Shown: in pieces, positions 1,097-47,797 of the stretch
Numbering within the stretch: the first letter of the stretch is position 1
How the letters are laid out: the number at the start of each line of letters is the position of its first letter
DNA from: Geosiphon pyriformis uo1
Taxonomy: Eukaryota; Fungi; Glomeromycota
NCBI GenBank assembly: GCA_016748015.1
Contig: JAAOMT010000230.1
Span: 62,001 to 126,000 of the forward strand
Length of the DNA: 64,000 nt
Reading direction: 5' to 3'
Made by a program: the position numbers and the translations under genes
The notes under the pieces: generated by a model
The model's input: the letters and a program-made list of their open reading frames with translations, nothing else
Database searches by the model: none
Told to the model about the DNA's origin: nothing

Positions 1097-1943
1097 TGTT
1101 ACAGTTTAAGAATTTAGAAAAAAGAATCATAAAAATAATACAAACTATTCAATCATAATATAGCACAATAATAATCTTAAAAAGGTAATAATTAACATAG
1201 TAGCAAACACCATCTCGCGATAGTGGCAAGCACCAGTTCACAATAGCAGCCAACACCAACTGGTGATAGCAGCAAACACCAGGTTGAAATATCAAAAAGA
1301 AAGTATTTTCTCGTAGAACTACAAACATGTATATATACAGTAGTTTTAATATTGGGAAATAATCAATCAAGTAATAAAAATCATAACTTATCAAGCAATA
1401 GATCCAATTTTATCCAACAAACTCCACTTTAAATCATACTTTCAAATTAAATATCCCAAGAAATCTTTAAAATCAAAAANNNNNNNNNNNNNNNNNNNNA
1501 AAGTATTAAGAAACTTACTTGTATTATTTATTGAATGAAACTATTATTCATCAACTGAATCCCTTGGAAGAATAATCCTTGATCAAGATTATTCACGTTG
1601 TTACTAATTGATAAAAGCTTTATTGTGAGAATTAGAAAAGTGCTAAAGACCATTAACATTCTGTGTTTCTAGATTAGAGAAACACATCAGGCAATTGCAA
1701 GGATAGCCTCAGAGAAGACCCCAGACAGTGAGTAGATTTCAGTTCAGCCTCTAAGAAGGAGTACATAAACACACACAACAATCAAGAATTAAAGAATAAC
1801 TTACATCACAACAGAAAAAAAGAAAGCCTTCAGTATAACAGTGACATTATCACACAAATAGAACTGAGGAATTCACGAAAGACTGATTGCAATTAAAGCA
1901 GAATATCAGCAATTAAATATAACAAGAAAACCATTCCGTAACA
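1097..1943 (+). repeat. 5' LTR of copy B
   Basis: TGTTACAG...CGTAACA; 1395-1943 matches 9795-10363; followed by PBS-like TGGTGAACCC at 1946. Confidence 0.92.
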
Positions 1944-2025
1944 TTTGGTGAACCCTATGAAGAAAGAAAATCAAAAAGGAAATAATAATTAGCAATAATT
2001 CATTGCTAAAAAGGAAAAGACAAAA

Positions 2026-4994
2026 GTGGCGACAAAAACCCTTAATCTTACTGTTCTTGAATTCTGCCATGCTATTTACACACAAAATCAAAGTGATCTT
2101 GGATTACCAGAAGGGTGTTGTCCAGCAGAATCTGCCCTCACTTATTATATCAACGCCAGAATAAATTATCATATAAGGAAAGAAAGAAGAACCACACGAC
2201 ACAAAACTTGGATTGTATAGAAAATTATCACAATACACTACAAAAGAAGTAGCAGTAATAGCTGCAACTATTGTCAAAATCCATCGAAAAATTGAGCAAT
2301 ACGTCAACAAAAATTTTCCAATATCTACAGGAAACACTAGGGAACGCGCCAACAAAACCAAAGAAAATTTAGAAACTAATCAGGAAAGTAACCAGCAAAA
2401 ACTAGAAACACCAGCTCAAACGCCAAAGAAAACTGTCACTCAATCAATAAAGAAACAACGTATTTATTCACCAGAAGATAAATCATACCATTTTTCACCA
2501 GAAAATAAGATACAAATTCCATTAGGAGCTGCATCATCATCAACATCAACTCCACAAACGCCAAAAACTCCTAGTTATATTGATAAAATTAAACAATGTA
2601 ACTGGGGAGACATACCAATTACAGGAGGATATTCATCACTATTCCAAAACCCTCTTTTTCAGCCAAAATTTAGAACGGGGTTTGAAAACCATGAAGAGGA
2701 GTCTGAATTAGAATCTGAAAAAAAGACCAGTGAAAAAACAATTACAAGACCAGTCACTGGAACAAGCAGCCAGTCCAAAAACCAAGAAACTCGTGATCAA
2801 GAGGAAGAACCGGATATAAGGGAAGCCACCTTTAGGAATGCTCAAGGAAATATCATCCCACCTCCTCTTAGACCAATAAACCCACCAGCAGAAAACGGCA
2901 ACGAAATGACCACACCATACATTGCAAGACTAACAGATTTCTCAGGAGAGGAAGAAGAAATGGACGTGCACACATGGCTCAGAGAAGCACAAAAAGCCAT
3001 CCAGGCAAATAACTGGAATGACCAAAGAGCAATTCAAACATTACCTTTCTTCCTGAAAGGCACAGCNNNNNNNNNNNNNNNNNNNNCAAGAGGAAGAACC
3101 GGATATAAGGGAAGCCACCTTTAGGAATGCTCAAGGAAATATCATCCCACCTCCTCTTAGACCAATAAACCCACCAGCAGAAAACGGCAACGAAATGACC
3201 ACACCATACATTGCAAGACTAACAGATTTCTCAGGAGAGGAAGAAGAAATGGACGTGCACACATGGCTCAGAGAAGCACAAAAAGCCATCCAGGCAAATA
3301 ACTGGAATGACCAAAGAGCAATTCAAACATTACCTTTCTTCCTGAAAGGCACAGCCAATTCGTGGTATCAAAGCCTGGAAACAAAACCCATGAGCTTTGC
3401 CAAATTTAAAAATGCACTCCTGGAGTATTTTAGCGACCCAAACGCCATAATCCAACTACAGAACGAATTCAATACTATCAAGCAAAATACCGGTGAAACT
3501 GTCACCCAATACCTTGCTCGATTCAATCGAATTCACCGTCAGATTGAAGTGATTGAACAAGGATACTACACTGATCCTCAGGTTTTAAATCAGTTTATTA
3601 GAGGATTAAAAAGCAGCATTTTAGGAAGAGTACACCCTGCCCATCCTAATTCCTTACCAGAAGCCGTTACGCTCGCCAGAGCCCTTGAATCGGCTGAGAA
3701 AGAAGCTAATCATAGTCAAATGGTTAACATGGTAATGGAGGAAAATAAGACAGAAACATTAGAGAAAAGAGTAATGCGATTAGGGGAGGAACTCTCTAAG
3801 AAAATAGAAAGTTACCTCATCCCGGATCCGAGAAAAAATACATACCAACCACCCCAAAGATGCAGCCAGGAAGTCAGCAACAGTCGAAATAATCGCTCGT
3901 CGCGCCAGGAATTCAGAACAGAAACACGCGCCTGCCATTTTTGCAAACGCGTAGGACATTTGATTAGTCAATGTCGAACGCAAATGATGCAGGAAGCACG
4001 CGAAAATAATTACTACGCGCCATCCCAAATGCCCAGAAACCAGTACATGCCAATACCATGCCAATATCCCACCACGTATCAAAATCAAGGAGCTTACCAG
4101 CAACAGCCCATGATAGCCAACCCAAATTGGTGTCCCGAGACCCGAAATCAGCCCATGTGGAACCAGAACGTGTTGGTCCAGAGGAATCCAAACCACGCCG
4201 GAACCAATCAGCAAACCAATCAGCAAACCAATCCAAACTACCAAAATTATCAACAAACTTATCTTAATATACTGGAAAACCTGATCATCGGAAACAATGA
4301 TGGTAGAAACATAAACAGAACCAAGAATTCCTCCAAATTGAGCCAGACAATACCACCAGCAGTTGCCACCGAAGATAGCAGCCTCGCAGTTATTTTTCCT
4401 TTTGAATTAGAGGAAAACGAGGCTATGTTCAGTGGAGCAGCATTGGACAAAAAACGCCCAATCACTGCTATGTATACGGAAGCCACTGTAAACAATACCC
4501 CAATCAAACTTATCTTAGACAGCGGATCCGCTGAAAGCATCGTAATGCTTCAATTAGTAAACCAACTGGGTTTCAAAGTTGATCGTGCCGTGACGTCCCA
4601 AATCATAACAGCCGATGGAAGTACAAAGCTGCCTCATGGCGAAATCGACTCATTCCCTTTCGAAATTAATGGCATAGTAATACCTACAAAAGTATTAGTA
4701 ATGAACACTACACAATATCAAGCATTAGTAGGGAATGACTGGCTAACAAAAGCCAATGCCACCCTAGACTGGACCATCCAAGAGCTTCTGATCAATTATA
4801 ATGGCCACCAGGCCAAAATTCCAGCCACCTGTGGCCACTTCCAAAAACCCAGTGCCAACCAAAGACCTACCTTTGAATTTGAGAAAAATCCAGCACTACC
4901 AGTCATCGAAACCTATCAGCTCTCTTGGGCTGATGACCAAAGAACAGGACTACCAGCCGTACCAACGTGGACCAGCGAAGAAAGATCCGAATGA
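2026..4994 (+). CDS. gag: Copy B Gag (N-terminal helical domain, capsid-like domain, CCHC knuckle) fused in frame to aspartic protease
   Basis: ORFs 2026-2220, 2213-3066 and 3195-4994; retrotrans_gag-like W..W..QFIRGL, CHFCKRVGHLISQC, LILDSGS; one frameshift near 2185 and a gap duplication. Confidence 0.88.
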
Positions 4995-5044
4995 AACCAG
5001 ATAAGTTCACGAAGAAACCACCAGCAACGCAGACCAAAGCTAGA

Positions 5045-5934
5045 ATGCTCGGTTTACAAGAAGAAACTCTCGTCTATGACTGCGTGCAGCACACCGGACG
5101 AAGACCTAAGAAACTCCACCCACTACTATTGTAACCGTTGTAACAAAGAAAAATACGGTTACCCAGAAAGACACGGAAAATGGAACGAGGAACCGTGCCT
5201 CGCTTGTGGAGAACCGTTACCAAGAGGGTGCGACTGGAACGACTTACCAGGCAGAGGAGGAATGTGTGACGCAACTTGCCAATACACGATCCTTATCTGT
5301 GACTGGGTAAGAGGAGGAACGCCGTTCGAAGCAGCGTTCAACAGAGCATTAAAAAGACTACAGCACTACCCACACGACAAGGACGAGTTGTACAACACCG
5401 CACAAGCCAAAGTAAAAGGAGGAACCGCCAAAGAAATACGACATTGAAAAGAGTCAACTGCAATAGCCGACGAAGTCGCCAGCTACAACATGTTCGACCC
5501 AGTGGACGAATTCCAGGACTACTATTAACAACTATGCCCCACTCGACAAGAGCAAGAACAATACCTCGCCCAAATCAACACTTACCTTTGCGAAAACTGT
5601 CTCATTCCGTACTAAAATCAGTGCTGTAAAGAGTGTCAAGACGAAAGAGACTTAGAAAAAAAAATGGAAATTGAGAATCAGCAGTCTCAAAATCAATCAA
5701 TAAATCAACAAGACTCACCTGACAATCCCGAGTCAGAAAAATTTGTAGCCTATACCGACCTAGAACAGGTGACTGACATCCGATACTTCGACAACGGGCA
5801 CTTAGGAATAATACCCGAAAGAGCCCATCCAACTGACGCCGGATTCGATCTACGTTATCCGGAAGACCAATCCACAACGTTACCACCCAGGAGCATCACC
5901 AAAATCGACCTAAAAATAGCGGTTGAAATTCCGC
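5045..5934 (+). pseudogene. Copy B Cys-rich domain plus dUTPase N-terminal part (truncated by N gap)
   Basis: CNRC, CLAC, CDATC, CENC motifs; then PERAHPTDAGFDLRYP (dUTPase motif 1); same frame as gag-PR, with a few stops. Confidence 0.85.
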
Positions 5935-5954
5935 NNNNNNNNNNNNNNNNNNNN

Positions 5955-7473
5955 AACACCACAAGAAATTCTAAATTTCCCAGAAATCGCCCTCTACTGT
6001 GAACTCATTTCAATAAATTGGCAACAACCGGTAGAATGCTATCAATTTACACCAGAAGAATTGGCCAAATTAAACATTGGAACAATGGATCCCGACCAAC
6101 AGCAACAATTAAAAGCATTAATTTTAAAATACTCTGATATATTTTCAAGAAATGGCGAATTTGGAAGAACCAACTTGGTTCAACACCAAATCTCCACTAG
6201 AGACGCCAGATCTGAAAAACAACGCGCTTACCGTGTCCCACCAATGAAGCATAATTTTATCAGAGAAGAAGTCCAAAGCATGTTGGAAAAAGGAATAATA
6301 CAACCATCAATGAGCCCATGGTCTTCACCAGTTGTTTTAGTAAGGAAAAAGAACGGAAAAATTAGATTTTGCGTCGACTATCACAAACTAAACAGCAAAA
6401 CAACCAAAAACTCATACCCAATACTATTAATTGACGAAATCTTTGACGTTTTTGGAAGAGCAAAATGGTTTTCTATACTGGACTTGACCAGTGGGTACTG
6501 GCAAGTGGAAATGGACCCAAAGGACAGGCATAAAACAGCATTCACAACACAAAATAGCAATTATGAGTTCAATGTAATGCCATTTAGATTAACAAACGCT
6601 CCTGCGACATTCCAAAGACTAATGGACGTAATTTACTCTGGAATCCTGTGGCAATCCGTTGTTGTCTACTTGGATAATACAAATGTTTTCTTGTCAAAAT
6701 TCACGGATTATCTCCAACATTTACAACAAGTTTTTGAGAGATTGAGACACGCTGGACTTAAACTAAATTTAGAAAAATGTTTCTTTGGGAAAAATGAGCT
6801 AGCATTTTTAGGACACGTAGTTGGAAAAGATAGAATAAAACCAGATCCATCAAAAATAGACAAAGTGAAAAATTTTCCAGTACCTCGAAACGTTTCAGAA
6901 GTTAGAAGCTTTTTAGAACTCGCATCTTACTACCGCCACTTTGTAGAAAACTTTTCAAACATCGCCAAACCCCTTAATTACCTACTATCTAAAAATGTGA
7001 AGTTTGAATGGACTGAAGCACAACAAAAAGCTTTTGAGTACCTTAGACAAAAGCTCATTGAATCACCAATAATGATTTATCCGAATTTCAACAAGAAATT
7101 CATTTTGGCCACAGATGCCTCTGGAACTGGACTTGGAGCCATTCTGTCACAAAAAGATGATAATGGAAGAGAACGTGTAATTGCTTATGCCAGCAGAAGT
7201 CTCAGTACGGCAGAACAAAACTATGCAGCACATGAACTTGAATGCTTAGCAGTAGTCTGGAGTTGTGTTCACTTTGACACATATTTACGGTACCAACCCT
7301 TTGAGATTACGACAGATCATAGAGGTCTGGTCTGGTTAAATAACAAGAAAGCGCTAAAAGGAAAATACGCCAGATGGTCACAAACATTAGCACCATACGA
7401 TTATATTATCAAATACAAAGAAGGTACCAAAAATGCTAATGCCGACTGTTTGTCAAGAATGAGACACACATAA
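5955..7473 (+). CDS. pol: Copy B reverse transcriptase + RNase H
   Basis: SPWSSPVVLVRKK, RFCVDY, DLTSGYWQV, MPFRLTNAPATF, YLDN (YLDD), LATDAS, ELECLAVVW, TDH, NANADCLSR; ends with TAA at 7471-7473. Confidence 0.95.
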
Positions 7474-7946
7474 AAATNNNNNNNNNNNNNNNNNNNNCCA
7501 TGCCAACGAAAAGGAGGAGCAAAAACAATGGAATTATTAAGACCAATAAAAGTTGGACAGCCATTTGACAGAATCGGAATTGATTTAGTTGGACCCTTAC
7601 CAATAACAACAAGAAACAACTGTTATATTGCAGTAGCCATGGACTATCTCACCAAATGGCCAGAAGCTAGAGCTATTAAAACAGCTGATGCTATTTCCGT
7701 AGCTCAATTCATACATGAAGACTTAATTTGCTGACATGGATGTCCACAAGAATTGCTATCAGATCAAGACACACACTTCGTAAACAGCACCTTAAAAAAA
7801 CTTAGCCAAAAATTTGGAATCAAGCGACCACTGTCATCACCATACCACCCTCAAACAAATGGATTAGTTGAAAGANNNNNNNNNNNNNNNNNNNNAAAAG
7901 ATAATTAATCTTAGATCACAGCAAAAATGATTTAACAACCATAAAA

Positions 7947-8301
7947 ATGCATGCAAAAGATTCCAAAATAGCAGTCAAAATTAAAACAATGATACTTATT
8001 CCAGAAAACATCAACAATATAATTCAACAATTAGTTGAAAGCTTACAACAATTAAAATCCGATCTAAAAATCACAGTTAATAGCTCCAAAATAACATACA
8101 TAAAAAGAACAATAGAAAATCCAAAAACAAGAAAAGAACATAATTTCGAACCATATAATATTGCCAAATATAACAACAAATTTATTAGCAAAGTTATTGA
8201 AAAATTAGAGATAGCATTGGGCAATACATTAATAATGGAAGAAATAGAAATAAGTGAATTAACACCAGACACATTTAGCAACTTGAAAACGAAATTCCCA
8301 A
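7947..8301 (+). CDS. Copy B ORF3 N-terminal fragment (misplaced contig; belongs after 9700)
   Basis: 7896-7980 repeats 9690-9774; MILIPENINNIIQQLV..LKITV..ITY aligns to the copy C ORF3 start MTIPQNIQQISQKL..LSITI..INY. Confidence 0.75.
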
Positions 8302-8321
8302 NNNNNNNNNNNNNNNNNNNN

Positions 8322-9697
8322 ACAACCACCTTTACAAAAACCTCAGCCAATACTTGGAAACACTACAAATAGACAAAGAAATGCCAGTAAAAGAGCTAAT
8401 TAAGCTCCAAAAATTAGCAAAACACTATTTCATCCAAAATCACATACTTTATTACCGGAATCGACAAAATCCAGATAATCCATTAAGAGTTATAACCACG
8501 GATGAAAAAGAAACTATCTTATTTAACATGCACTCAGATATTCATTCAAGCCACTTTGGAAAAACAGCAACCATCCAACGTGCAACTAGCCGTTACTATT
8601 GGCCAAAAATGAGCTCAGACATAATCCAATACATAAGAAATTGTGATCCATGCCAACGAAGAGGAGGAGCAAAAACAACGGAATTATTAAGACCAATAAA
8701 AGTTGGACAGCCATTTGACAGAATCGGAATTGATTTAGTTGGACCCTTACCAATAACAACAAGAAACAACTGTTATATTGCAGTAGCCATGGACTATCTC
8801 ACCAAATGGCCAGAAGCTAGAGCTATTAAAACAGCTGATGCTATTTCCGTAGCTCAATTCGTACATGAAGACTTAATTTGCTGACATGGATGTCCACAAG
8901 AATTGCTATCAGATCAAGACACACACTTCGTAAACAGCACCTTAAAAAAACTTAGCCAAAAATTTGGAATCAAGCGACCACTGTCATCACCATACCACCC
9001 TCAAACAAATGGATTAGTTGAAAGATTTAATCGCACATTATGCGAATCACTGGCGAAAATTAGTAACGAACATGAAAAAGAATGGGATTTGTTCATACCA
9101 GCAGTACTATTAGCATATAGAACAGTAAAACAAGATACTACACAATTCACACCATTTGAACTAGTTTATGGAAAAAAAGCCACATTACCCATTGAACTTA
9201 CTATCCCAACTTATCCGAGTGACACTATTATGGAAGCAACATTCCAGAAAACACTACTTAGAAGAACATACGAATTAATGGGAACTTTAGAAAACAAAAG
9301 AAGAAAAGCAGCACAAAATATTGAACAATCACAAGAACAACAAAAAGTGAGACATGATAACCAGTTACCAGATAATATAATTAGCTACAAAATTAGAGAT
9401 AAAGTATTGTTGCATCGTACAAAAATGGAAAAACAGTGGAGTGGAAAATTTGATCACAAGTGGGATGGACCATTTTATATTCACGAAATACTTGGAAATG
9501 GAGCATACAAGCTAAGACTAAATGATAAAATATTAAGAAAAGCAGCACATGGTAACCGGCTGAAATTCTATTACAGTAAACCAGTAATAACAACAAAAAC
9601 ACCCAGAATTGGAACACAATTACCTTTAATTCTACCAGAACAAATTCCACGAGATTTAGAACCAATAGTTTTAATTGAACATTATTCGAAAAGATAA
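8322..9697 (+). CDS. Copy B DDE integrase (one internal CGA>TGA stop at 8882)
   Basis: HHCC (H..HFG..CDPC), IDLVGP, SDQ, HPQTNGLVER, GPY/F motif WDGPF; no chromodomain. Confidence 0.92.
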
Positions 9698-9794
9698 TTA
9701 ATCTTAGATCACAGCAAAAATGATTTAACAACCATAAAAACACATGCAAAAGATTCCAAAATAACATTCAAAATNNNNNNNNNNNNNNNNNNNN

Positions 9795-10363
9795 GCAATA
9801 GATCCAATTTTATCCCACAAACTCCACTTTAAATCATACTTTCAAATTAAATATCCCAAGAAACCTTTAAAATCAAAAAGAAATGAAAAAGAATATTTAA
9901 AACTAAACTATCACAACCCAAAGTATTAAGAAACTTACTTGTATTATTTATTGAATGAAACTATTATTCATCAACTGAATCCCTTGGAAGAATAATCCTT
10001 GATCAAGATTATTTACGTTGTTACTAATTGATAAAAGCTTTATTGTGAGAATTAGAAAAGCGCTAAAGACCATTAACATTCTGTGTTTCTAGATTAGAGA
10101 AACACATCAGGCAATTGCAAGGATAGCCTCAGAGAAGACCCCAGACAGTGGGTAGATTTCAGTTCAGCCTCTAAGAAGGAGTACATAAACACACACAACA
10201 ATCAAGAATTAAAGAATAACTTACATCGCAACAGAAAAAAAGAAAGCCTTCAGTATAACAGTGACATTATCACACAAATAGAACTGAGGAACTCATGAAA
10301 GACTGATTGCAATTAAAGCGGGATATCAGCAATTAAATATAACAAGAAAACTATCCCGTAACA
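9795..10363 (+). repeat. 3' LTR of copy B (5' part lost in N gap)
   Basis: Near-identical to 1395-1943, ends GTAACA. Confidence 0.9.
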
Positions 10364-15410: not shown

Positions 15411-18048
15411 ATGAGTGTAAGTGCGCAGTTCTTTCATAAAATTAATTTTTATTCGAGAAATTGCTTTGGGTGAATTCCACGAAAAACTTTCTTTTAGGCA
15501 GACGAGTTCAAGAATTTGGGGAACCAAGCTTTCGCAGCCAAAGACTACGGAAAAGCGATAGAGCATTTCACTAAAGCTATTGAACTTGACTCTTCAAATC
15601 ACGTTCTCTATTCAAATCGCTCCGCAGCTTATGCTTCTTTAAAGAATTACTCACAGGCTCTAGAAGACGCGAACAAAACGGTCGAGCTGAAAAGTGACTG
15701 GGCAAAGGTTGGCTGATTTTGTAAAATTGGGAACAAATATTCCTCTTTTTTAGTCGACTTCACATTTTTTGTATACTTTTTCTAGGGATATAGTAGAAAA
15801 GGTGCCGCCCTCCATGGTTTAAATAAATTGGAGGAGGCGCGAGAAACTTATCGGGCGGGTCTTAAAATCGAGCCCAATAATAGTCTGCTTAAAAAATCTC
15901 TTGAAGAATTGGAATCTCCACGTTCTTCCCGTATGTATTGGTTTTCTGGCTCGCAAATTTAACTGTAAACTCAACAATACTTTTTCTATAGCTTCTTTTA
16001 GTATACTACCCGATGATGCGCTAGCCAAAATAGCTTTAAACCCAAAGTTAAGGCAATATTTGGAACAGCCTGATTTTATTCAAAAAATTCAAGCAATTCA
16101 AAAAGACCCTCAATCATTTCCAACGTATATATTCATTTTGGAATTTTTTTATTTTAAAAGTTATATGATGCCTCCTAATTAACCAATTATATCTTAGTCA
16201 TCTTCAAGATCCTCGTATAGGGGAAGTACTGCAATATTTTTTGGGAATCAGTTTTGGAATGGGCAACAAGGAAGACGAGGCAAGTGAAATTTATTGGAAG
16301 TCAGAATCTTGAACATTGTTAAAAACTTGTATTTTTCTTATTAGAAAAGATGAGCTTGAAATTTTATTTCTTCTTTTTCTAAACAGCATAGTTCTGAGAG
16401 TCGCTCAGAAGAGGTATGTTTCCATATTTTTTCAACAATAATAGATTTCTTCGACAAGCAATAAAGAGATTCACCATCGAGAAAAAAAGGAACCAGGAAA
16501 ATTTCACTAAAACCGAGAATTCTTTTCGAATCAGACCAAAAAGGAACAGGAAGTTCACGAAACTGAAATTGAATCAGAGCCAATGGAAATAGTGGAAAAG
16601 TCAGAGGAGGAATCAAAGAAAGAGGAGGCCATTAAAGAAAAAGAACTTGGCAATGCAGCATATAAAAAGAGAGATTTTGCCGCAGCCCTGCAGCATTATG
16701 ATAAAGCTTGGGAGTTGGACCCCACAAATATTACTATTCTGAATAATAAAGCTGGTAACTAAAGTTATTATTTCACCGGGTTGTACGCTAAACATGCTCA
16801 TCCTTCTTTATTCCATAGCTGTATTGTTCGAGCAAGAGAATTACGAAGAATGCATCAAGGTATGTGAAGAAGCAATCAATGTAGGCCGTGAGAATCGTGC
16901 AGATTTCAAATTGATAGCAAGGTGATTTTGGATCTTGGATCGATTTTATTTGTGCTGAATTTTATGAACTGTGTTTAATAAATAACTTTTTTAGAGCGTA
17001 TGGACGAATAGGCAACGCTTTCATTAAGCTTGATAACCTCGAAGAAGCTATAAAGAATTACGGAAAATCCTTAACAGAACATCGTACCCCTGATATTCTA
17101 AAAAAGCTAAATGAGGTAATAATCGCTGACGGATTTTCAAAATAATTCAATCATCAGCGATTAAACTACTGTAAATTTAGACGCAAAAATTGAAGGTAAC
17201 GCGAGAAAAGGAAGCCTACTTCAATCCTGAGCTTGCGGATCAAGCTCGTGAACGTGGCAATGAGTTATTCAAGCAAAATGACTTTGTCGCAGCTCAAAAA
17301 GAATACACAGAAGCGATAAAGCGTAACGAAAAAGATCCCCGAGCATACAGTAATCGAGCAGCTTGTTATACAAAACTTATGGCTTTCCCAGAGGCTTTAA
17401 AGGATTGCGAGACCTGCATTAGCTTGGATCCAACCTTTGGTAAATAACAAATCCTCGATTATTGGACTTCTTTGTTTTGAATATTTTATTCATTGAAATC
17501 TTCATGGATCAACACTATTCTCTCTTAAAAGTGAAAGCGTACATTCGTAAAGCAGCCGTGGAATTCTTGAAAAAGGATTACAATAAATGTTTGGAAACAT
17601 GTGAGCTTGCAAGGCTACACGACGTAGACGGAAAACATTCTACTGAAATATTTCAACAGATGCGGAAATGTCATGAGGTCTTGGATCAAAACCTAAATTC
17701 CGCAAGTGAAGAAGATATTTTGGCGCGAGCGAGAAATGATCCAGAAATTCAAGTAAAATTGGATAGTTTTTTTCACTTTTGCATAGACACTTGTAGACCT
17801 ATTATTATTATGATTTTTTACACTTTTAGAATATTTTACGTGACCCTGTAATGGGACAAATTTTGAGCCAAGCGCAGGAAGATCCCCGTGCACTCATGGA
17901 GTATGTTATTTTTCGCAAGGCTCTTTCTAATATCTACATATTTATAACGCGTCTTTTTCTCTTTTAAAATATTAGTCACATGAAGAATCCCGTTGTTGCG
18001 GGTAATATTCGTAAATTGATTAATGCCGGTATCTTGAAGGTGGCATAA
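15411..18048 (+). CDS. STI1: STI1/HOP Hsp70-Hsp90 organizing co-chaperone (TPR1-DP1-TPR2A-TPR2B-DP2), 13 exons
   Basis: Exons 15411-15416, 15498-15707, 15786-15930, 15992-16124, 16198-16279, 16387-16413, 16535-16754, 16819-16921, 16995-17115, 17181-17439, 17532-17752, 17830-17900, 17976-18048. Translation [75 protein letters not shown]. Confidence 0.96.
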
Positions 18049-18540
18049 ATCCGAAACTGGGTTTAGGAAGAAAAGTGGATCCTTGAAGATTTAATTTGGG
18101 CTCTGAGAGGCTTTAACTGTTGAGGCTTTACATTTTATTACATCGGCACTACACTGATCATTTACCTATTTAACTTCACGATTTGAAGGGGGTAATATGT
18201 AGGGTATCAAACTTTTCACCTCTAGGTTTGTGATATTGATTTTTTCTTTTATTCTTTTGGGATATTCAAATTTGTGAGATTAGGTAAAAACGCCCATATA
18301 GCAATTCTTGATTGTTCTTTTATAAATGTGAACAGCAGATGAAAGTTACAAAAAAATGAATTTCTTTAGTAACTAAATATGAGTTCCAAATCTAGGAACT
18401 TGATAAAATAAAAATTTATTAATGTTGAACAAAAAATATAAAAAGCATATATGGGCATGCTGCAGTGGCTGTGGGATCAGCCTGAAAAGAATTCACGTCG
18501 CGTTTTAGAAATACCACTTCTACATATTATTTATAATAGG

Positions 18541-33000: not shown

Positions 33001-34275
33001 GAAACTCATCCTATCCATTTGAAGTCTTATCAGTCCAATTGTCACAATGATGAGTTTATCAAGAAAGAGATAAACCACATGAAAGAATTTGGATTTATAC
33101 AAGAAACCAAGAGTAAATGGGCTTTTCCAGTTGTAGTGGTATTCAAGAAAAGTGGAACCCTATGCTTCTGTATTGACTACTACCAATTAAATGTCATCAC
33201 TGAAAGAGACATGTACCCACTTCCCAAGATTGATGCAATGCCAGACCAATTCAAAGATGCTGCTTTCTTTTTAACCATTGATTTAACTGTTGGATTCTGA
33301 CAAATAGAGATGGATCCAGAAAGCCGGAAAAAAACTGCCTTTATCACCAAGTATAGCACCTATGAATTCACAGTCATGCCTTTTGGTCTTACCAATGCTC
33401 CTCCCACCTTTCAATGCTTAATGAATAAAGTATTTGAATCAGTGAAAAAAAACTTTGTTCTGGTCTATCTGGACGATATAATGGTGTACTCAAAAACCTG
33501 GGATGAACACCTTAAACATTTGCAAAAGGTTTTTGATCTTCTCAGAAATACAGATCTCAAAATCAACCCAATCAAATCTTTCTTTGGAAGACAATCCACC
33601 CAATTCTTTGGCCATCTTATTACAAAAGATGGAATCTTTTCTGATCCAGCCAAAGTAGAAAAAGTTCAAAACATAAGACAACCAATGAATATTCATGAGT
33701 TATATTTTTTTCTTGGTTTGGCCTCTTATTATTGCAAATTTGTTAAGGATTTCTCCAAAATTGCCTCTCCACTCAATCAGCTACTCAGAAAAAATGTCAA
33801 CTACTATTGGAGCACATATTAGCAGAAAGCATTTGAAATCTTCAAAGAAAAATTGGTTACAGAACCTATTCTCAAGCAACCTGATCTGAATCAACCTTTT
33901 ATCCTTCACATTGATGCATCTGGTTATGAACTTGGTGTTGTTCTCTCACAAAAAGATGAAGATAGCAAGGAACATACAATAGCCTATGCCAGTAGAACTC
34001 TTACACCAGCAGAAAAGAACTATTCAGTTACTGAGCAGGAATGCTTAGCAGTAGTTTGGGCTACTAGCTACTGGAATAAGTATTTTCTTGGTGTGAAGTT
34101 TTTGGTAGTAACAGATCACCAAGCTTTGGTTTGGCTGTGCAACAAAAAAAGACTAGAACATAAATGGATAGCCTGCTGGATACTCCACTTAGATGAATTT
34201 GACTATAATATTTAACACCATAAAGGAGCTAATCATTAAAATGCTGATGCTTTTTCCAAATTTACCATCAAATGA
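30041..34275 (+). pseudogene. Copy D gag-PR-RT-RNase H polyprotein (many C>T/G>A stops)
   Basis: LILDSGSS protease, WWHGPCAQCWC..CKSC, MPFGLTNAP, YLDD, IDAS, EQECLAVVW, TDH, NADAFSK; TGA at 34273-34275. Confidence 0.9.
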
Positions 34276-34339
34276 CAGTACAACCTTCCAAACCAAACCA
34301 ACCTAATTATTAGTAATTCTTTTACAACCAAACACGATA

Positions 34340-35625
34340 ATAGACTTGAACAACTACTCTGCCTTAATAGAATTTTTGGGTAAAGAACAATACCCACCAG
34401 AATACACTTAACAGCAAAAAGAACATTTGCACAAACAATCAAATTTTTATTTAATCCACCAGAACCAATTATACAAAAGAAATAAAAAAAATTCTGACTG
34501 CCCCCAGAGAGTCATAAGATTTAAAGAAAAAGAAATTGTGATCTACAACATGCATACTGATCCATTAGCTGGACACTTTAGAAAAACAAAAACAATTTAG
34601 AAAATTCTAGCTTGCTATTATTGGCCTATCTTGGGAAAAGACATTACTGAATATATCAAAATCTGTAATACCTGCCAAAAAAGAAGAAAATCCAATCACA
34701 AAGAAAACATCTATCCAATCTCTGTTGGCCAATCCTTTAACAGAATTGGTATAGATGTTATTGGACCATTAACAGTAACTCCTAATGGCAACAGATACAT
34801 TATCACAGCTATTGACTATCTTACAAAGTGAGTAGAAGCAAGAGCCACCCCAGATCAAACAGCAGTTTCCATTGCTAATTTCATTTATGAAGATATCATT
34901 TGTTGTCATAGCTGCCCCAAAAAACTTTTATCTGATAGAAAAAGAGCTTTTCTTAGTACACTGGTTAAAGAACTTTGTAGAAAAATAGGAATATGTCACA
35001 AACTTTCTTTCCCTTATTACCCCCAAACAAATAGTCTAGTAGAATGTTTCAATAGAATACTGTGTAAAACCTTAGCCAAAACAAGTAAAGAAACAAACTT
35101 ATGGGACAAAATACTGCCTTCAGCTTTGTTTGCTTATAAAACTGTGAATCATGACATAACAAGTTATAAACCCTTTTTCCTGCTTTATGGACAAATAACA
35201 ACACTACTAATAGAAACTGATATTAAGACAATACTCTTTGAAGAAATTACAATAGGAAATTACAAAGACATTTTGCAAAGAAGACTTGGTACCATTCTTG
35301 ACTTATTGGTAGAGGCATGGATAATTGCCTTTAAAAAGATAAAACAGTTCCAAGAGAAGCTTAAGAAAAAAAAAATCTATAAAACACTTTCCTTAAGCAT
35401 TGGTGACTTGGTTTTGGAATACTGTTCAGACAAAAACAATGTTTATAGTGATAAATTCTTTAGCCGATGAAAAGGACCCTTTATAGTCAACAAAGTTCTG
35501 AACAATAGTTCTTATATTTTTCAAAATTAATCTGAAACAATCTTTAATGATTGTTCTATTCATGGCACATAACTCAAGAAATATCACAAATGATCTGATT
35601 GGTTATCTGTTGTGGTAATACTGAC
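34340..35625 (+). pseudogene. Copy D integrase
   Basis: H..GHF..CNTC, IDVIGP, SD, PQTNSLVE, GPF; begins in a different frame from RNase H. Confidence 0.88.
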
Positions 35626-36351: not shown

Positions 36352-37943
36352 TTATCACATGTATTAGCCACTGATGTCATATAATTAGCCACCTTATTTT
36401 TAAATAGTGATCATTAATCTAGTCATTGATTACTTTCAATAGATATATAAGTGATGAGTCTCTTAGCTGTAGAAAAATATCAATGTAAGGAATCAAAACA
36501 ATCAAAGAAATAAAATAACAAACTTCCATCTCAAACATTCTCTTATCACTAATTTCTCTTTCCCTACTTTCAAGTATCTGAATATCTTTTGGATAAAAAA
36601 TTACTTGTTGGCACTTTCCTAAAATGTGTAATTGCAGTATTTGAAAATTATTTGAATAAATGTCACTAAAAAGCACAAGTTGATATCTGATATTAGATTC
36701 TAAGAGTGCCAATGTGAGACATAGAATTATACCAGCAGTTATCAATTGTTGACAGTACAGACTATTCCTCTACCTTTAGATTCCCTTGTTATCTTTTGAA
36801 AAGAATAGTGACTGAGATATTTTATAAGACTGATCTCGTACATTGAATCCATACTCATTCAATTTACTCATTGAAGTTGAATTCTCTTTGATTATTTTCA
36901 TCACCCTACAATCCTGTTCTTTTTTGCTATTCATTAGCTTATTACTCCAACTCATAACAATATTATTAACTGTACTTGATTTTTATAATCAATACTAGAT
37001 GGTGTTACCGGAGGTTTTTGGGGTCTCTTTTTTTGAATGTTGTTAATGCCTGTTTGCTGTGAATTTACGTTTTCTGGATGTGGTTGAACCTCTAATAACT
37101 GAATTTATCTTCAAATTATCTCCTATAATTTGAACTGCTGAGCTTATAAGTGGAATGGCCAATTCCGTGCCAGTTATTTTATGTAGTTACATTGTAGTAA
37201 ACATCAACTCTTTCCCAGGAATTGCTTGTCTGGAAGCTCACTAAAAATGTGTAGTTACTTTGCTGTAAAAGTCAACTCTTCTACAGGAATCCCGTCTGTA
37301 GGCTACCCTAATAATTATAATAAGAAAAATAAAAGAAAAGTAAAAAAATGTAAAAGAAATAAAATTCTGTCAAGGGAAACGTTTTCTATCCAAGCCTGGA
37401 GTTACTAACAGTTTACTGAAATTGGTAGCTAATCAATTTCAAACTGTTTAGTAGGAATTTGGTTAATTTCAAAAGGAAAATAATTAAGAATTTGATTTTT
37501 CAAATTATTTGATATTTATTTCGTTTTTGTGTGTAAAGGATGATTCTAGTTGTTAAATCTGAAGTAAGATATATTTTCTTGAAGAGGGAAGCTCTTCTTT
37601 TATACAACTTGTTGTAACACTATTCTATGAACTTGAACTTTGCTATTTTTTATAATTTTGCTGAACTAAAGTTATATTTTGGCAAACTACAAGTTATTTC
37701 TGCAAACTATTAGATATTTTGATGAACTATCAATTATTTCGGCGAATTCCTACAAATTTTGGTGAACTTTTTGAATGTTACATAGTTCGGGGTATTGCAT
37801 GATTGATCATCGCAATTAGGTTACATTTGTGTTATGTACAAATTGGGTTATTAATTAAATGATAATTTTGGATATTTTGCTAATGTAATAAGTAATAATT
37901 TGAAATGCTAATTAATGATAAGAATTATAAAGGTAATTTCATG

Positions 37944-38663
37944 CTAAGCAATATTTCTAATTTTGTCTGGTAATATAACCTCCTCCTCAAGACTGAGCTC
38001 CATCGAAGTCCAAGTACTATCTGTAATTTCCAGATAATAATCCAAAATTATTGAAGAAATTTGGTCTGAAAATTGTTGAAATTTCAGTTTTGTGAGCTTT
38101 CCAATGTATTGAATCTTCAAAGATTGTAAAATTGGGTTTTGTAGAACGTTTTCACAGGTGTGGAATAGGCCATAAAGTCTAAGAGCAGCTCTTAGTTTAT
38201 AATGACTGTTTGTAGGTCCCGCTGTTGTCTTGAATTTGTTGTAGAGTTGTTTCCAAATAGCTTCTTTTGTGAAATTTGCTGCTGTAAGCTCCTGTTTTTG
38301 TTCATGAAGTGTTTTTCCAATGTAGAAATATCTATATATTGAAGTATAGTTGTAGTTTTCTTTATTAAGACACAGTTGAAGTTTTTGTTGAATAGTAGCA
38401 TTTGGTGGAATACTAATGAGAGTGAACATTAAATTTTCTCTTAAGGCAAGCTTCAAGAGTTTTGGTAGATGAATTCCAGAATAACTTCTTGTGTTCTTTT
38501 TGTAAGGGTAATAATTTCGTGAATTTGGGGCTAAATTGGCAACTATTTCTGTTTGGGTATAATTAATATGTTTTTCTGTAATAGTGATAGATAATTCAGG
38601 TATTGTCTTTAAAACTAGCATTAGTTTTTGAGATATTTGTTGAATATTTTGAGGGATAGTCAT
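37944..38663 (-). CDS. Copy C ORF3, intact 239-aa protein of unknown function
   Basis: Uninterrupted ATG-started ORF between integrase and the 3' LTR; homologs in B, D and E. Confidence 0.8.
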   Translation of the reverse strand: MTIPQNIQQISQKLMLVLKTIPELSITITEKHINYTQTEIVANLAPNSRNYYPYKKNTRSYSGIHLPKLLKLALRENLMFTLISIPPNATIQQKLQLCLNKENYNYTSIYRYFYIGKTLHEQKQELTAANFTKEAIWKQLYNKFKTTAGPTNSHYKLRAALRLYGLFHTCENVLQNPILQSLKIQYIGKLTKLKFQQFSDQISSIILDYYLEITDSTWTSMELSLEEEVILPDKIRNIA

Positions 38664-38807
38664 TATAAAATTTGAGTGAGAAAATAGATTGAAATTATTT
38701 TTGGTATGTGGATTTTTATGTTATTTTTGTTTTTTAGTGTGTTTTGTTTTGTTTTTGTTTTTGTGAAATTATTTTTAAATTATAAGGGAATAATTAGTAA
38801 AATTAAA

Positions 38808-40182
38808 TTAAGTGTTCAAGTTGGAAGATTGTTCAATGACAACTATTGGTTCTAAGTTTTGGGGAATATCTTCGGAATTGACTAAAGAAGAATGTATACC
38901 AATTTGTGGAATTAATAGTTCTGAAATGATAGTGTTTTAAACAATCTCCATGTGCAACTTTTGCTAAGATTTTGTCATCAAGTCTTAACTTGTATGATCC
39001 ATTGCCTAGTATTTCATGGATAAAGAATGGTCCATTCCATTTATTTTCAAATTTTCCACTCCATTATTTTTCAGCTTTAGTTCTGTATAGAAAAACTTTG
39101 TTTTCAACTTTAAAATCATTGGTAACTGGAGGCAATTTGTTGTTATGCTATTCTTTTTGTTGAGTTTAGAAGTGTTCAATATGGGTGGCTGCTATTCATT
39201 ATTTTCTTTTCAATGTGCTGAAAAGTGTATAGGCTCTTCATTAAAGCATTTCCTGGAAATTGTTTTTATTAATTGGTTGTGCTGGGTATGTTTCTACTAT
39301 GAAACTAATTGGTAATGTTGCTGTCCTTCCATAAGTTTAATCAAATAGTGTGTGTTTTGTGGTATCTTGTTTTAGTGTTCTGTATGCTAATAACACTGAT
39401 GGAATAAAGATATTCCATTCTTGCTCAAAATTGGTTGAGACTTTGGCTAATGACTTACACAATGTTCTGTTAAAACGTTCTACAAGTCTGTTTGTTTGTA
39501 GATGGTAGGGCAAAGACAGAGGTCTTTTGACATTGAATCGTTCACAAATTTCTTGTATCAGGTTGTTCACAAAGTGTGTCCCCTGATCGGATAAAAGTTC
39601 AATTGAACATCCATGTCTACAAATGATGTCTTTGTAGATGAAATTTACTACTGACTTCACATCTGCTCATTGAATGGCTCTGGCTTTGGGCCATTTAGTA
39701 AAATAGTTTACAGCTACTGCAATATAATGGTTTCCTTGAGTGGTAATAGATAGTGGTCCGACTAAATCAATACCAATTCGGTCAAAGAGTTGTTCAACTT
39801 TGATTGGATTTAATGGTTTAGTAGAGCATGTTTCTTTTCTTCTTTAACAACTATCACAAGATTCGACATATTTGTGAATGTCTTTTCTCATTCGAGGCCA
39901 AAAGTAGTATTCTAGTGTTCTTTGGGTGGTGCTGTCTTTTCCGAAGTGTACTGATGAAGGATCTGAGTGCATGTTATATAATATAGTCTCTTTTTTCTGT
40001 TCTTGTATTAATCTGAGTGGTTTGTCTGGGTTTTTGAAATTTCGATGATAAATAATGTTGTTGTGTAGAAAATATTGTTTGACTTGTTGTTGTAATTGAT
40101 GTTTTTCATCTGGAGACCAATCTGTTGGGATTGTTAATGTTTCCAAATATTGTTTAAGATTGTTGTAGTTTTCCGAATTTAT
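38808..40182 (-). pseudogene. Copy C integrase
   Basis: HSDPSSVHFGK..CDSC, IDLVGP, SDQGTHF, QTNRLVERFN, WNGPF, EPIVVI. Confidence 0.9.
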
Positions 40183-40233
40183 TGTTTGTTGGCTGTTTTG
40201 GTTGGTTAAGTTGAGTGTTGGTTTTTGTGTTTT

Positions 40234-41650
40234 CTAATCTTGTCTCATTCTGGAGAGACAGTCAACATTGGTGTGAAGTTTTTCTGGTTTGTGATGTACT
40301 ATGTATTGATAGTTTGCTAGAAATCCTGTCCATTAGGTTTGTTTTGTGTTCAGCTGAGTATTTTTGTTCTGAAGCCATTTGAGTCCAATATTATCAGTAA
40401 TAATATCGAATTCCTTTGGCCGGAAATAAAGATTGAAATGGTGTAGGGCCCAAATTACAGCTGCTGTTTCCAATTCAGTGGCAGGATAATTTTTTTCAGC
40501 TGGTTTTAATGTTCTGCTAGCATAGGCGATTACTTGCTCATTTCTATTGTCATCCAATTGTAATAGAATAGCACCAAAGGCAGTATAAAAGGCATCTGTT
40601 GCTAGTTGGAATCAGTTGCTGAAATCTGGATAGGTGAAAATTGGAGCTGTTGTTAGTTTTTCTTTGAGGATTTCAAATGCATTTTGGCATTCAGCAGTCC
40701 ATTTGTATTTGATGTTTTTGGTGGTAAGCTGGTTGAGAGATTTTGCGATTTCTGAGAATTTTTTGATAAACTTCCAATAGTAGGAGGCTAACCCTATGAA
40801 TCCTCTTAGTTCTGTAGTGTTTCGTGGAGTTTTGAAGTTTTTGACAGCACTGATTTTTTCAGGGTCTAGTTTGATTCCATCTTTACTAATGATATGACCA
40901 AAGAAGGCCAAGCTTGTTTTTTCAAAGTAGCATTTTTTGATGTTGAGTTTTAGTCCTGTTTTTCGTAATCATTGAAAAACTTCTTGCAAATGTTTTAAGT
41001 GTAATTCGAATGATAGAAAATAAACATCAGTATCATCAAGATAAACGACTACTGACTTCCAAAGGAGTCCTTGGTACACAACATCCATTAATCTCTGAAA
41101 TGTTGCTGGTGCATTGCATAATCCAAAAGGCATTACATTAAACTCGTAATTTCCGCCTTGGGTGGTAAATGCTGTTTTGGGGTGATCTTTGGGATCCATG
41201 ACAACTTGTTAGTAACTGCTTTCTAAATCTAGTGTTGAAAAGTATTTGGATTTTCCAAGAGCATCTAACATGTCATCAATTCGGGGAAGGGGGTAGGCAT
41301 CTCCAATTGTAACACTGTTGAGTTGTCAATAGTCAACACAAAATCATATCTTTCTATTTTTTTTTAACTAACACTACAGGTGAAGCCCAAAGACTTATGG
41401 AGGATTGGATAAGCCCATTATTAAGCATTCATTGTACTTCTTCTCGGATGAATTGGTGGCTTTCTGGAGCAACTCGGTAGGCTTGTTGTTGCCTTGGTTT
41501 GGCATCTTCTGTGTAGATTTGATGTTGAACCAAATCGGTTCTTCTTAAGTTATTGTTGTTTTTGGCAAAGATATTAGCAAATTCTGCAATTAGTTCTTTG
41601 AGCTGGTTTTGTTGTTGTGGTTCAAGTTGTCCCATGTTGATTTGAGATAG
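40234..41650 (-). pseudogene. Copy C RT + RNase H
   Basis: MPFGLCNAPATFQR, YLDD, IAYASR, ELETAAV, CLSRMRQD* (TAG at 40234-40236). Confidence 0.92.
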
Positions 41651-42065: not shown

Positions 42066-42468
42066 TCATTCAGTTGAACCAAAACCTTGGGTTCCTTTAT
42101 TGCTTTTTCCTAATTGTTCTCTTTGATTGACTAGTTGCAAACCTGAAATGTTGATTAGGAGTAGGTAAATAGCTTGGGCAATTTTTTCAGCATGTTCGAT
42201 CTTGAATGGTTTGTCAGTTTTATTTTGAAGCATCACTATAATGTCTCCAGTATATTCAGCATCGATTATTCCTTCTCTGACATTGATTTTTTTACTTGCC
42301 AGAGAGGACCGGGAGGCAATTTGAACCATTGCTCCTGGTGGAATTTCGAGTGCAATTTTGAGGTTGATTTTTGTGAGAGATTTGGGTTTGAGAACAAGAG
42401 TATCCTTGTCTGGATATCTTAGGTCATATCCAGCATCAATTTCGTGTGCTTTTTCAGGTTTTATTCCT
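42066..42468 (-). pseudogene. dut: Copy C dUTPase domain
   Basis: Motifs AGYDL, SRSS, GIIDAEYTG, KIAQ, KGTQGFGST. Confidence 0.93.
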
Positions 42469-44767
42469 TGTCTGTTGTTGTCAAAGTATTTGAGTTGTAA
42501 GGCAGGCTGATTTTCAATAAGATAGATAGGTATTGTTTCAATTTCTTCCGTTGCTTCAGGTTCTCCAAATTCAATTTTGTTCTCATCACTTTTGCTGGGC
42601 AAGAGGATGCTAAGAGCGTAGCATTCAGAACACCACTGTTTATCACAAAGCATAATGCATTCTTCACATAGCCTAATGTTCATTTGCTCTAATTGGTGAA
42701 TTTGAGCTTCTTGAGTTGGATAGGTGTGACTTGCAATTTGGTGGTAGACTTTTACTTCATCTTCGTAATTGAATCCAGCTAATTCCATGGTGTATTCAAT
42801 GTATTCTGCTTCCTTCATTTGACAAACATCTTCTTTGGTAGCTTCATTAATTAATGCCATTGCTAGGTCGAAAATCATCTCAGCATCATGGGAGTAGTGA
42901 TAAAGTTTGTTGAGAGCACTGTTGTATGCTGCATTAAAGAGTGTTCTTCTTTTGACTTTTTCTGAAATTGATAAAACATATTGGCAGGTTTGATCACAGA
43001 CTCCTCCTCTCATTGCTACATCAATCTAATTGCATTCTTCTGGTAGCATATCTCCACAAGTCAAACAAGGGGTATTGTTCTATTTTCCGCTTCTTTTTAT
43101 TAGATGGCCTCATTGTTCTCTGTGGCAAGCCTTGCAGTAATAACAAGTATGACTTTTATATTCTTCTTCAGGTAAAATGCAGGCTCCCATTGACGATAGT
43201 TTCTTGTAACAGTTCTTATATTTAAGGGGAATGTAGGGGCATTGTTTCCTTGGTTCAGGCTTTGAGTAAGAGATATTCTATCCAGAGGTTTCGAGTTCAG
43301 AGTGTAGGGTAAAATGTTCTTGTTCAGTTTCATCAGCCCAATTGGACATTGATCCAAGAGCCATGAATGTTTTGATTATTGGTTTTTTTTTCTGGCTCGA
43401 ATTCAAAAGCCGGGGCTTTTTCGGAGCATTTGTTAAATGTTCCACAAGTGGCAGGTACTCGGGCATGTTGTCCTTGGTAAGAGATTTGTAGTTCTTGGGT
43501 TTCTTAGTCTAATTTCACATTGGCTTTTTGGAGCCAATCATTTCCGACAAGAGCTTGATACTGGGGCGCATCCATTATAAGAACTTTAACTGAAATAGTA
43601 ATTTCATCAAGAGTGAATGGAAAATTGTCAATTTCTCCTACTGGAGTTTTTTTCATGTTATCGGCAGTAACAATTACTGTTTGAGCTGGTCAGTCGACAT
43701 TTCTCTTTAACTGTTGTATTAACTGGTAGATAATAATGCTTCCAGTGGATCCATTGTCTAGAATCAAGCGAATTGCCTTTCCTTCAACTTCTGCTTTAGT
43801 GTACATAGCCATAATTGCTTTTTGTTTATTGGTGGCTGCATTGCTAAGCAGGAATAGTGACTCATTTGCTTCGAACTCAAAAGGGAATATATCTGAAAGA
43901 TTGGCATTTTCAGCAATTCTGGCTGGTGGGATTGTGGTGGGAGTATAAGAAGGGTTTTGTTGTTGTTGTGCTGCAGCTCTACCTTCTGAGAGTGCAATAT
44001 GGTGAAAATTCTGTTCTTCTGGCATTGTTAAATAACTGGGTTGAGTGTGATAGTGGTTGGGTTTTGGTTGAGTGGAATTTTGGGGAACCAATTGGTTGTT
44101 TGAACTGATTCTATTGTTGTTTACTTGGTATTGGTTTTATGATGTGAACTGATTTTGTGTAATCAGTCTTCGAGCAGGTACTTGATAATGTTATGTGGGT
44201 GGTTGTTGGTATTGCTGTTGGATTGGCTGTGGGGCAGGCTAATAATAGTTACTTTGATATTGGAGTCTTGGTAGATAGTAAGCTGGTAGTGATGGTTGAT
44301 AATAAGATTGCTGTGGTGGAGGGTAATGTTGATTACTCCTATTTTGTTGGTCTCATTGTAGCTTTCTGCAATCTCTTTTTCAGTGGCCAGAGATTCCACA
44401 GTAATGGCAATTTTGAGGCTGGTTATTAGAAAGTGGTGCAAAGTTATTTTGATTTCGTCTTTGGGGTGGTTGATATTTTTGGAATTGCTGTTGTTGTTGA
44501 TTGGTGAAATAGTTTTCAACTTTCTTTGTGAGTTGGTCAATTTTTTTCTCAGCTGCTGAGCTGGTTTTTCTAATTGCCAAATTTACAAGTTTTGTGCAAT
44601 TGGCCTCTTTTATGGCTATTTCATATCTTTTTGCATGCTGTATGACAGAGTTTAAATCTTCTGGGGCATGTGGATAAACCTTTTTAATTAGTTTATCTTT
44701 TAGACCAGCAATAAATTGATCCAAGATTTGAGCATTGGAATAATAATCATTTGTTTCGAGTTGGCAA
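42469..44767 (-). pseudogene. Copy C gag C-terminal half, protease and Cys-rich domain (gag N-terminal half at 54936-56018)
   Basis: DQFIAGL, CHYCGISGH, LILDNGS, CDQTC, CEEC..CSEC. Confidence 0.87.
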
Positions 44768-45673: not shown

Positions 45674-46327
45674 TTAAGCTCCGTCAAAATCTAACTCGTG
45701 TAATTTCCCTTCTTGAAGTATTTCCTGGATTTCGTTTTCGAGAATTACTTGTGTTATTTGGGTCTGTAATTCTTCAAATTGAGCATTGGTGATTTTTCCC
45801 AATTGATTACTGGTAACCATATTCATTGCTCTGTTGCATAATATTTCTGGTTTATCTTGAAATGCTGTGTGTATTTAGTATATGGCTCGAGCTTATGTGG
45901 ATAAGTTGTTTTTTCCCACAAAATGTCCTAATTGTTGTAGTATTTTTTTGTTGAATAATTGCTTTGTTTTATCCATATATAGATTCTGAATATTTACATG
46001 TTGTCCCAAGTAGAAATAACAATAGTTTCGTGGGAATTGTTGTATCCATCAATTCCAAGTTTTTTTAGTCAATTCTTGATATAGTGACTCTTTTGTCGAT
46101 TCTTTTATTGCTAATTTTACTTTCGCCATGATTTTGTTCACAGTATTTTCAGTTTTCTTCTGTGTTCTGAATTGAAATGTTTTTCTAGTATCTTGATATC
46201 GAATGGTTTGTTAATTGATTGTAATCTCCATTTTCTGGTGTTGGATTAATTGAAAGAGTTGTTGTGCTAGTGAGTGAATGTTGTTTGTAATTTCCATTTT
46301 TCTGATATTTCCTGTCACGTCTACCAT
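45674..46327 (-). pseudogene. Copy E ORF3 (a few premature stops)
   Basis: MEITNNIHSLAQQL..YCYFYLGQH..ARAIY*IHTAF..QLGKITNAQFEELQTQITQVILE; aligns with ORF3 of C. Confidence 0.8.
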
Positions 46328-47734: not shown

Positions 47735-47797
47735 CTTTTGTTGTATTTTTCTGTTGGTATTGTTCTGGTTTTATTATATTTTTGGGTTGAAATGTTC

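Follow-up and report, generated by a model that had tools for sequence, protein, structure and literature searches.

The window, that is the whole stretch of 64,000 nucleotides that was analysed, is an AT-rich nest of LTR elements surrounding a small host-gene block. Four of these elements are referred to as B, C, D and E, and the features expected of Ty3/Gypsy retrotransposons, namely LTRs, a polypurine tract (PPT), the order gag-PR-RT-RH-IN, a Ty3 capsid and GPY/F, were all found. The features around the integrase C-termini, together with one host gene, are as follows:

1097 to 10363, forward strand: element B, a Ty3/Gypsy LTR retrotransposon (5' LTR at 1097-1943; 3' LTR ending at 10363).
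8322 to 9697, forward strand: integrase frame of element B, with its start hidden by the assembly gap at 8302-8321 and one in-frame stop at 8882-8884.
9398 to 9574 (approximate limits), forward strand: SH3 (GPF/Y) domain of the element B integrase (Pfam SH3_Tf2-1, E 3e-5, below the cut-off), with a linker of about 30 aa to the motif.
9659 to 9679, forward strand: C-terminal motif of the element B integrase, E-PIVLI-E in translation (core 9662-9676), then EHYSKR; stop at 9695-9697.
15800 to 18100, forward strand: host STI1/Hop-like TPR gene with introns, its name inferred from the translation (Pfam TPR matches), uninterrupted by these elements.
35606 to 35620, forward strand: decayed short-linker motif of element D, SVVVI, preceded by a W at -4 that many homologues share; 10 aa, then stop.
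38835 to 38849, reverse strand: motif of element C, PIVVI with E on both sides, then EQSSNLNT; stop at 38808-38810; a frameshift lies upstream in the linker.
46373 to 46387, reverse strand: motif of element E, PIIII with K before and D after, then DNNMLN; stop at 46352-46354.

The translations showed that the C-terminal peptides described for B, C, D and E in an earlier note on this DNA lie where they had been placed, even though each of the quoted 15-base spans holds only the five motif residues and leaves the preceding E, K or L just outside. All four tails lie C-terminal to the GPF/SH3 domain of a Ty3/Gypsy integrase (Pfam SH3_Tf2-1 matched in B and E), with a stop 6 to 10 aa past the motif. 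In element D a stop is found 4 codons ahead of the motif and the proline is absent, and in element E the codon preceding the motif proline (46390) reads Glu rather than Lys in 64% of the depth. The earlier statement that these integrases lack a chromodomain was borne out by zero Chromo matches (Pfam) among the 24 long ORFs scanned, and as the tails of C and D end within 10 aa, a chromodomain has no room there.

The integrases of B, C and E share 68% to 73% DNA identity over IN, and 10 to 13 of 26 tail residues are identical; their tails are common by descent, so that they are not three independent cases and the window alone proves little. The pattern P.[VI].[ILV] occurs 109 times in the 127,996 six-frame positions of the window, and its presence at four integrase ends is therefore not due to chance. 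A role as a DNA-level signal (PPT or LTR) was ruled out, since in C, D and E the motif and the 3' LTR are 700-860 bp apart and since the copies differ at synonymous sites. The long-linker subfamily also keeps a further stretch of about 20 aa N-terminal of the motif (a G, a hydrophobic run, a P and IP; 9602-9658 on the forward strand in B, and its equivalents in C and E), and this conserved stretch may form a second binding surface.

Element B sits inside an older gag-bearing element between the 4-bp flanks GCGC/ACGC, and the start of its 3' LTR and its PPT are lost in the assembly gap at 9775-9794. The element is misassembled (7478-8321 and 9775-9794): 7498-7875 duplicates 8648-9025, the piece 7896-8301 belongs downstream of the integrase stop, where it carries the sequence on, and 2798-3066 occurs again as 3087-3355 on the other side of a gap. 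A dUTPase domain was seen upstream of RT in elements C (42066-43025, reverse strand) and E (49649-50350, reverse strand), and none was seen in B or D. A distance of 4 bp separates one end of element C from the edge of a decayed LTR (57036-57040), and 44 bp separate its other end from element D (36959-37003). The target duplications appear to be 4 bp long (ATAT for D; GCGC/ACGC for B).

A separate integrase reading frame and ORF3

In the usual Ty3/Gypsy layout, the integrase is in frame with RT-RNase H in a single pol ORF. This layout was not found in the window, where the pol frame stops a few codons past the end of RNase H in all four elements, by three different stop codons, and the integrase is separate from the RT-RNase H frame. 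The junctions, and a further reading frame downstream termed ORF3, are located as follows:

7471 to 7473, forward strand: stop directly after RNase H in element B; the integrase start is in the gap.
34273 to 34342, forward strand: element D, stop after RNase H at 34273-34275; the integrase begins in another frame, with its N-terminus (codon ATA) at 34340.
40180 to 40236, reverse strand: element C, stop after RNase H at 40234-40236, integrase N-terminus at 40182 (codon ATA).
47732 to 47800, reverse strand: element E, stop after RNase H at 47798-47800, a 63-nt spacer with more stops, integrase ATG at 47734.
37944 to 38666, reverse strand: orphan ORF3 of element C, about 240 aa, between the integrase and the polypurine tract, with no Pfam match.
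45737 to 46024, reverse strand: relative of ORF3 in element E.
8058 to 8252, forward strand: relative of ORF3 in element B, out of place, between gaps.

The integrase starts 51 to 64 nt past the RNase H stop in C, D and E. At the RNase H stop of element E, no other letter reached 5% or more among 882 contig pieces, which is weak support as short contigs hide differences near their ends. Among the 120 best homologues, obtained in a search restricted to 194-618 aa in which fused forms could not appear, 92 start with M[DENK]x3-4Y, and these are mostly integrase-only proteins of 400 to 440 aa; motif-less homologues have the same stand-alone starts. Two fused relatives were seen, both without the motif, and in one gene model from Entrophospora a short RT-like piece is attached to the integrase, which is a weak case. 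Scans for related loci returned no Glomeromycotina elements, and the stand-alone homologues may belong either to LTR elements or to Ginger-like DNA transposons.

The integrase relatives also include Ginger1-type proteins with OTU or Ulp1 tails. The separate integrase ORF is unusual for Ty3/Gypsy, and a link to the Ginger1 transposases is possible, with which the window elements have in common a stand-alone integrase of about 400 aa with an N-terminal extension, zinc finger, DDE and GPY/F, as well as 4-bp duplications. In contrast to Ginger1, however, they carry LTRs, gag, protease, RT and RNase H, and a C-terminal peptide in place of a protease; the terminal inverted repeats, lack of RT and OTU/Ulp1 tail of a Ginger1 DNA transposon were not found in them.

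For ORF3, neither a Pfam nor a PDB match was found. The search gave 206 homologues, and 119 of the 120 listed are 'hypothetical proteins' of G. pyriformis, the remaining one being the window's own protein, so that many annotated genes of that species are element ORFs. Element D has a long, mostly open frame at the place of ORF3, which gave no tblastn match. The separate integrase ORF and the orphan ORF3 are new and go beyond the first reading of the window, and no account of a separate integrase ORF of this kind was found in the literature covered (titles and abstract openings; few subscription journals).

The tail motif in homologues and in predicted structures

The 120 best of 1,493 matches and the 150 best representatives together gave 269 proteins, of which 204 have a complete SH3 end and 111 remained after dereplication at 75% SH3 identity; these were scored as 72 close and 39 distant homologues. 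Six of the ten closest integrase relatives looked up are named Geosiphon pyriformis, which together with the names of the ORF3 homologues makes this species the most likely host. The results showed that P.[VI].[IVL] is present in the first 45 tail residues of 27 of the 72 close homologues, in comparison to a mean of 3.4 and a maximum of 10 in 500 shuffles, and in 5 of the 39 distant homologues, which is not significant (shuffled mean 1.6, maximum 6). The patterns P.V.[LMI] and P.[VI].I were found in 16 and 24 of the 72 close representatives in comparison to shuffled means of 1.0 and 1.5, respectively, and strict PxVxL was found in none of them. The motif that the earlier note had read from the window is thus conserved far beyond it, and it is missing from 45 of the 72 close representatives.

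From the 72, 46 tails of at least 10 aa were aligned with no preselection for the motif and with five long-linker rows left out. On the upstream side, W (13) or L (10) is followed by E (18) and P (32). No single residue prevails at position -1 (I 8, Q 6, T 5, L 5), position 0 is V (19) or I (12), position +1 is mixed hydrophobic, and position +2 is I (23) or V (8), followed by D/E (14). As read from this alignment, the tail profile is W/L-E-P-x-V/I-x-I-E/D, an alternating pattern. Among 32 motif matches, 2 have L at position +2 and 10 have I at position 0, acidic residues are found at -3 in 15 and at +3 in 18, position +1 is V, I or L in 22, and position -1 is aliphatic in 15.

The motif is mostly offset from the SH3 end by 6 to 8 aa, and by 23 to 31 aa in some proteins; some carriers have 40 to 150 residues C-terminal of the motif, and the tail is 6 aa or shorter in 14 of the 72 close homologues. 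Presence of the motif varies even among near-identical members of one 90% cluster. In the P0071 90% cluster (P0409, P0414, P0417; including Rhizophagus irregularis proteins), some members end just before the motif Trp and others keep the motif, which makes this cluster a natural pair for insertion-site comparison. In R. irregularis, families with the motif (P0071 type) occur beside families that lack it (P0018 and P0029 type).

In a quick tree of 103 integrase cores, with the tail left out, the nearest carriers outside the window are about 1.06 changes per column away, and the motif label needs 18 changes, 8 of them forced by starred branches. By this tree the motif is old or recurrent, and often absent. 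The five chromodomain-bearing INs in the tree (two Pfam-confirmed) all lack the motif and stand on a separate branch with 100% support. As the chromodomain-bearing INs have their own branch, the earlier proposal that the tail motif replaces the chromodomain of chromoviruses stands as an analogy; the tree traces no loss of a chromodomain.

AlphaFold monomers were obtained for the element E integrase (106-row alignment) and for the short-linker homologue P0001 (107 rows), the latter of which matches foamy-virus and Ty3 intasome chains. In both, the core and SH3 are well folded and the motif is low-confidence coil, with pLDDT of 53-65 and 60 for the last blocks in comparison to 82-98 for SH3. The possibility that the motif is a structural strand of the integrase, which the earlier note had named as fatal to its reading, is thus not what these models predict: the motif lies outside the monomer fold, in a segment predicted to be flexible and accessible. 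Because it is coil in the models, because 14 of 72 tails are 6 aa or shorter and because cluster members differ in having it, the motif is, by the models, not needed for the integrase fold. The motif tends to be accompanied by a basic residue (Lys) in SH3 strand 1 (24 of 29 in comparison to 3 of 19; Bonferroni p 0.005 by a naive test, with only 3 independent pairs), and this association may reflect a contact within the integrase; no hydrophobic column tracked the motif after correction.

Taken together, the motif is a real, conserved and dispensable peptide of the docking type: its conservation, variable linker, repeated absence and coil state in the monomer models are what a docking peptide would be expected to show.

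Candidate partners of the tail peptide

The reading of the earlier note presupposes a chromoshadow HP1 in the host. Fungal HP1 genes were picked up by a pattern scan, and a profile made from five chromoshadow domains detected HP1 in G. pyriformis (P0319; Chromo_shadow, E 1e-18, at about 219-285) as well as in Glomus, Rhizophagus, Funneliformis, Gigaspora, Paraglomus, Acaulospora, Ambispora and Diversispora. The strand that forms the groove is near-invariant in all 11 aligned Glomeromycotina HP1s (P0319 and 10 others) and matches Swi6; in the host it reads F-Y-E-Q-R-L-T-F, with a conserved Arg. The chromodomain of P0319 is below the cut-off (E 0.035) and its stretch is disturbed where relatives have YLIKWKG, which is probably a splice error in the annotation. 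A chromoshadow DNA pattern scan of viral contigs gave no match, and the literature covered gave no study of H3K9me/HP1 in Glomeromycotina.

Our best guess, to be taken as tentative, is that the motif docks on the chromoshadow dimer of the host HP1. The tail peptide would insert as a beta-strand between the dimer's two C-terminal strands, where P(-2), V/I(0) and I(+2) would occupy the three groove pockets and the conserved Arg of the host strand would pair with the acidic residues at -3 and +3. The docked tail would tether the integration complex to H3K9-methylated chromatin and steer new copies into silent DNA. The docking is supported by the conservation of the motif, its variable linker, its repeated absence, its coil state in the models and the presence of a chromoshadow HP1 in the host. 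In excerpts of the published work, HP1-alpha binds a PxVxI peptide at 110 nM (PMC4557296), an xx[IV]x[IV] motif is bound by Chp2 and Swi6 in fission yeast (PMC6499331), and DIM2 contacts Neurospora HP1 through its I-x-V-x-L and an acid-Arg bridge (PMC11315935), so that Ile at 0 or +2 is tolerated; the accepted variants PxVxI and xx[IV]x[IV] are both matched by the tail motif. The fungal groove is also described there as having little side-chain specificity (PMC6499331), and because such a groove is permissive, a motif match comes cheaply and the fit alone is weak evidence. Further points against the docking are the absence of strict PxVxL, the 45 of 72 close representatives without the pattern, the match of the calcineurin pattern to 22 of 72, the SH3 strand-1 Lys and the low-scoring P0319 chromodomain; a point in its favour is that none of the five chromodomain-bearing INs carries the motif. 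Among the partners considered, HP1 is nonetheless the one that we would provisionally regard as best supported.

The known chromoshadow ligands (Sgo1, CAF-1, Mit1 CkIvV and DIM2 IxVxL, as far as excerpted) likewise carry alternating P/V-I/I in a flexible segment, and the host has the domain; they are host proteins, however, while the window-type tails almost always have Ile at +2 and have acidic flanks. The Ty5 integrase, which binds Sir4 in budding yeast, similarly uses a short C-terminal integrase segment for a silent-chromatin protein (PMC5911963, in excerpt), but Ty5 belongs to a different superfamily (Ty1/copia), its sequence and partner are different, and its binding and targeting are proven in comparison to inferred for the window elements. 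In chromoviruses, the chromodomain stands at the same position past GPY/F and the same outcome has been proposed (PMC6839031, in excerpt, citing Gao 2008), whereas the window integrases have no chromodomain and would reach H3K9me indirectly through HP1. No integrase described as an HP1 chromoshadow or PxVxL ligand was found in the titles and abstract openings covered (few subscription journals).

The alternative that deserves most attention, although we hold it to be unlikely, is that the motif binds the element's own proteins, either by strand addition to an adjacent integrase subunit within the intasome or by loading the integrase into the particle via Gag, RT or ORF3. With a stop after RNase H in all four elements, the integrase cannot ride in on Gag-Pol, and most of the best homologues (92 of 120, as above) also begin as separate, mostly integrase-only proteins; a separately made integrase must enter the particle by some route, and this is another role that the motif could plausibly have. 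The SH3 strand-1 Lys that goes with the motif is in keeping with this, and monomer models are blind to contacts in trans. Motif-less homologues, however, have the same stand-alone starts, the linker varies from 6 to 31 aa, no hydrophobic column tracks the motif after correction, and the Lys signal is unconfirmed by independent pairs.

It is rather improbable that the motif docks on another host chromatin or nuclear factor, or binds HP1 for nuclear retention or interference with silencing. Integrase tails do bind varied host factors, such as Sir4 for Ty5 and Pol III for Ty1 (PMC5911963, in excerpt), but none of the partners considered fits the profile better than the chromoshadow groove.

It is highly improbable that the tail serves as a SUMO-interacting motif and thereby ties the integrase to SUMOylated chromatin proteins, through which it might likewise reach heterochromatin. 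V, I or L at +1 (22 of 32) and the acidic residues at -3 and +3 (15 and 18 of 32) agree with such a motif, and in related Ginger1-type transposases the corresponding end bears an Ulp1 or OTU protease domain; yet two SIM patterns fell within the shuffled range (7 of 72, mean 3.8, maximum 9; 13 of 72, mean 6.3, maximum 15), no more than 15 of 32 have an aliphatic residue at -1, and SUMO binding would not explain the conserved Pro and Trp/Leu. No SUMO-interacting motif of this kind in an integrase was found in the titles and abstract openings covered (few subscription journals).

Short linear motifs in integrases also recruit host factors in retroviruses of animals, with other sequences and partners than those considered for the window: the MLV integrase has an ET-binding motif (BET proteins), and the deltaretroviral integrase recruits PP2A-B56 by a B56-binding motif. 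Least probable of all is a calcineurin PxIxIT docking site bringing the phosphatase to the integration complex, as even though PxIxIT matches 22 of 72 tails (shuffled mean 2.4) and STLV intasome:B56 structures exist (PDB titles), the residue before Pro is D/E in 15 of 32 matches and V/I/L in 3 of 32, Thr is found at the sixth position in 0 of 32, and calcineurin binding is strongly reduced by an acidic residue just before Pro and raised by a hydrophobic one (PMC6728138, in excerpt).

Returning to HP1, it is doubtful whether docking would amount to HP1-directed targeting, in which the free-standing integrases of a widespread Glomeromycotina clade would mimic an HP1 client via the terminal PxVxI and integrate into H3K9me heterochromatin. 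If true, this would be the first integrase-HP1 chromoshadow tether and would add to chromodomains and Ty5-Sir4 a third way of targeting heterochromatin, one that works through its most conserved adaptor; the motif-less sister families would serve as natural controls, and a five-residue handle would be cheap to test. It would also be a possible driver of the TE-rich compartment in mycorrhizal genomes, and would bear on targeting in comparison to selection as the origin of the repeat-rich compartment in mycorrhizal fungal genomes. Should the partner be a protein other than HP1, both the conserved peptide and the stand-alone integrase ORF would still be real features, for which the literature covered gave no prior description.

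The earlier note had taken the nesting of these elements in older TEs as evidence for targeting. Insertion into older TEs was found for B (a gag-bearing element), E (the gag of C) and a solo LTR at 11410, while the target of D is an AT-rich stretch with no TE established. The host-gene block makes up about 8.75% of the window, and six random insertions would all miss it with a probability of 0.58 before selection; the nesting thus says nothing on targeting, the more so as repeats are abundant in Archaeosporales (62.5% masked repeats on average; PMC11952901, in excerpt). The same source gives LTR elements as 41.2% of the G. pyriformis genome and TE overlap in exons of 61% of its genes, which counts against heterochromatin steering but is softened by the fact that many annotated genes there are ORF3 copies. 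The E family is very abundant, with 7,991 contig pieces of run X1 on one 501-base stretch, and C>T and G>A changes are dominant among these pieces, the pattern expected of methylated repeats.
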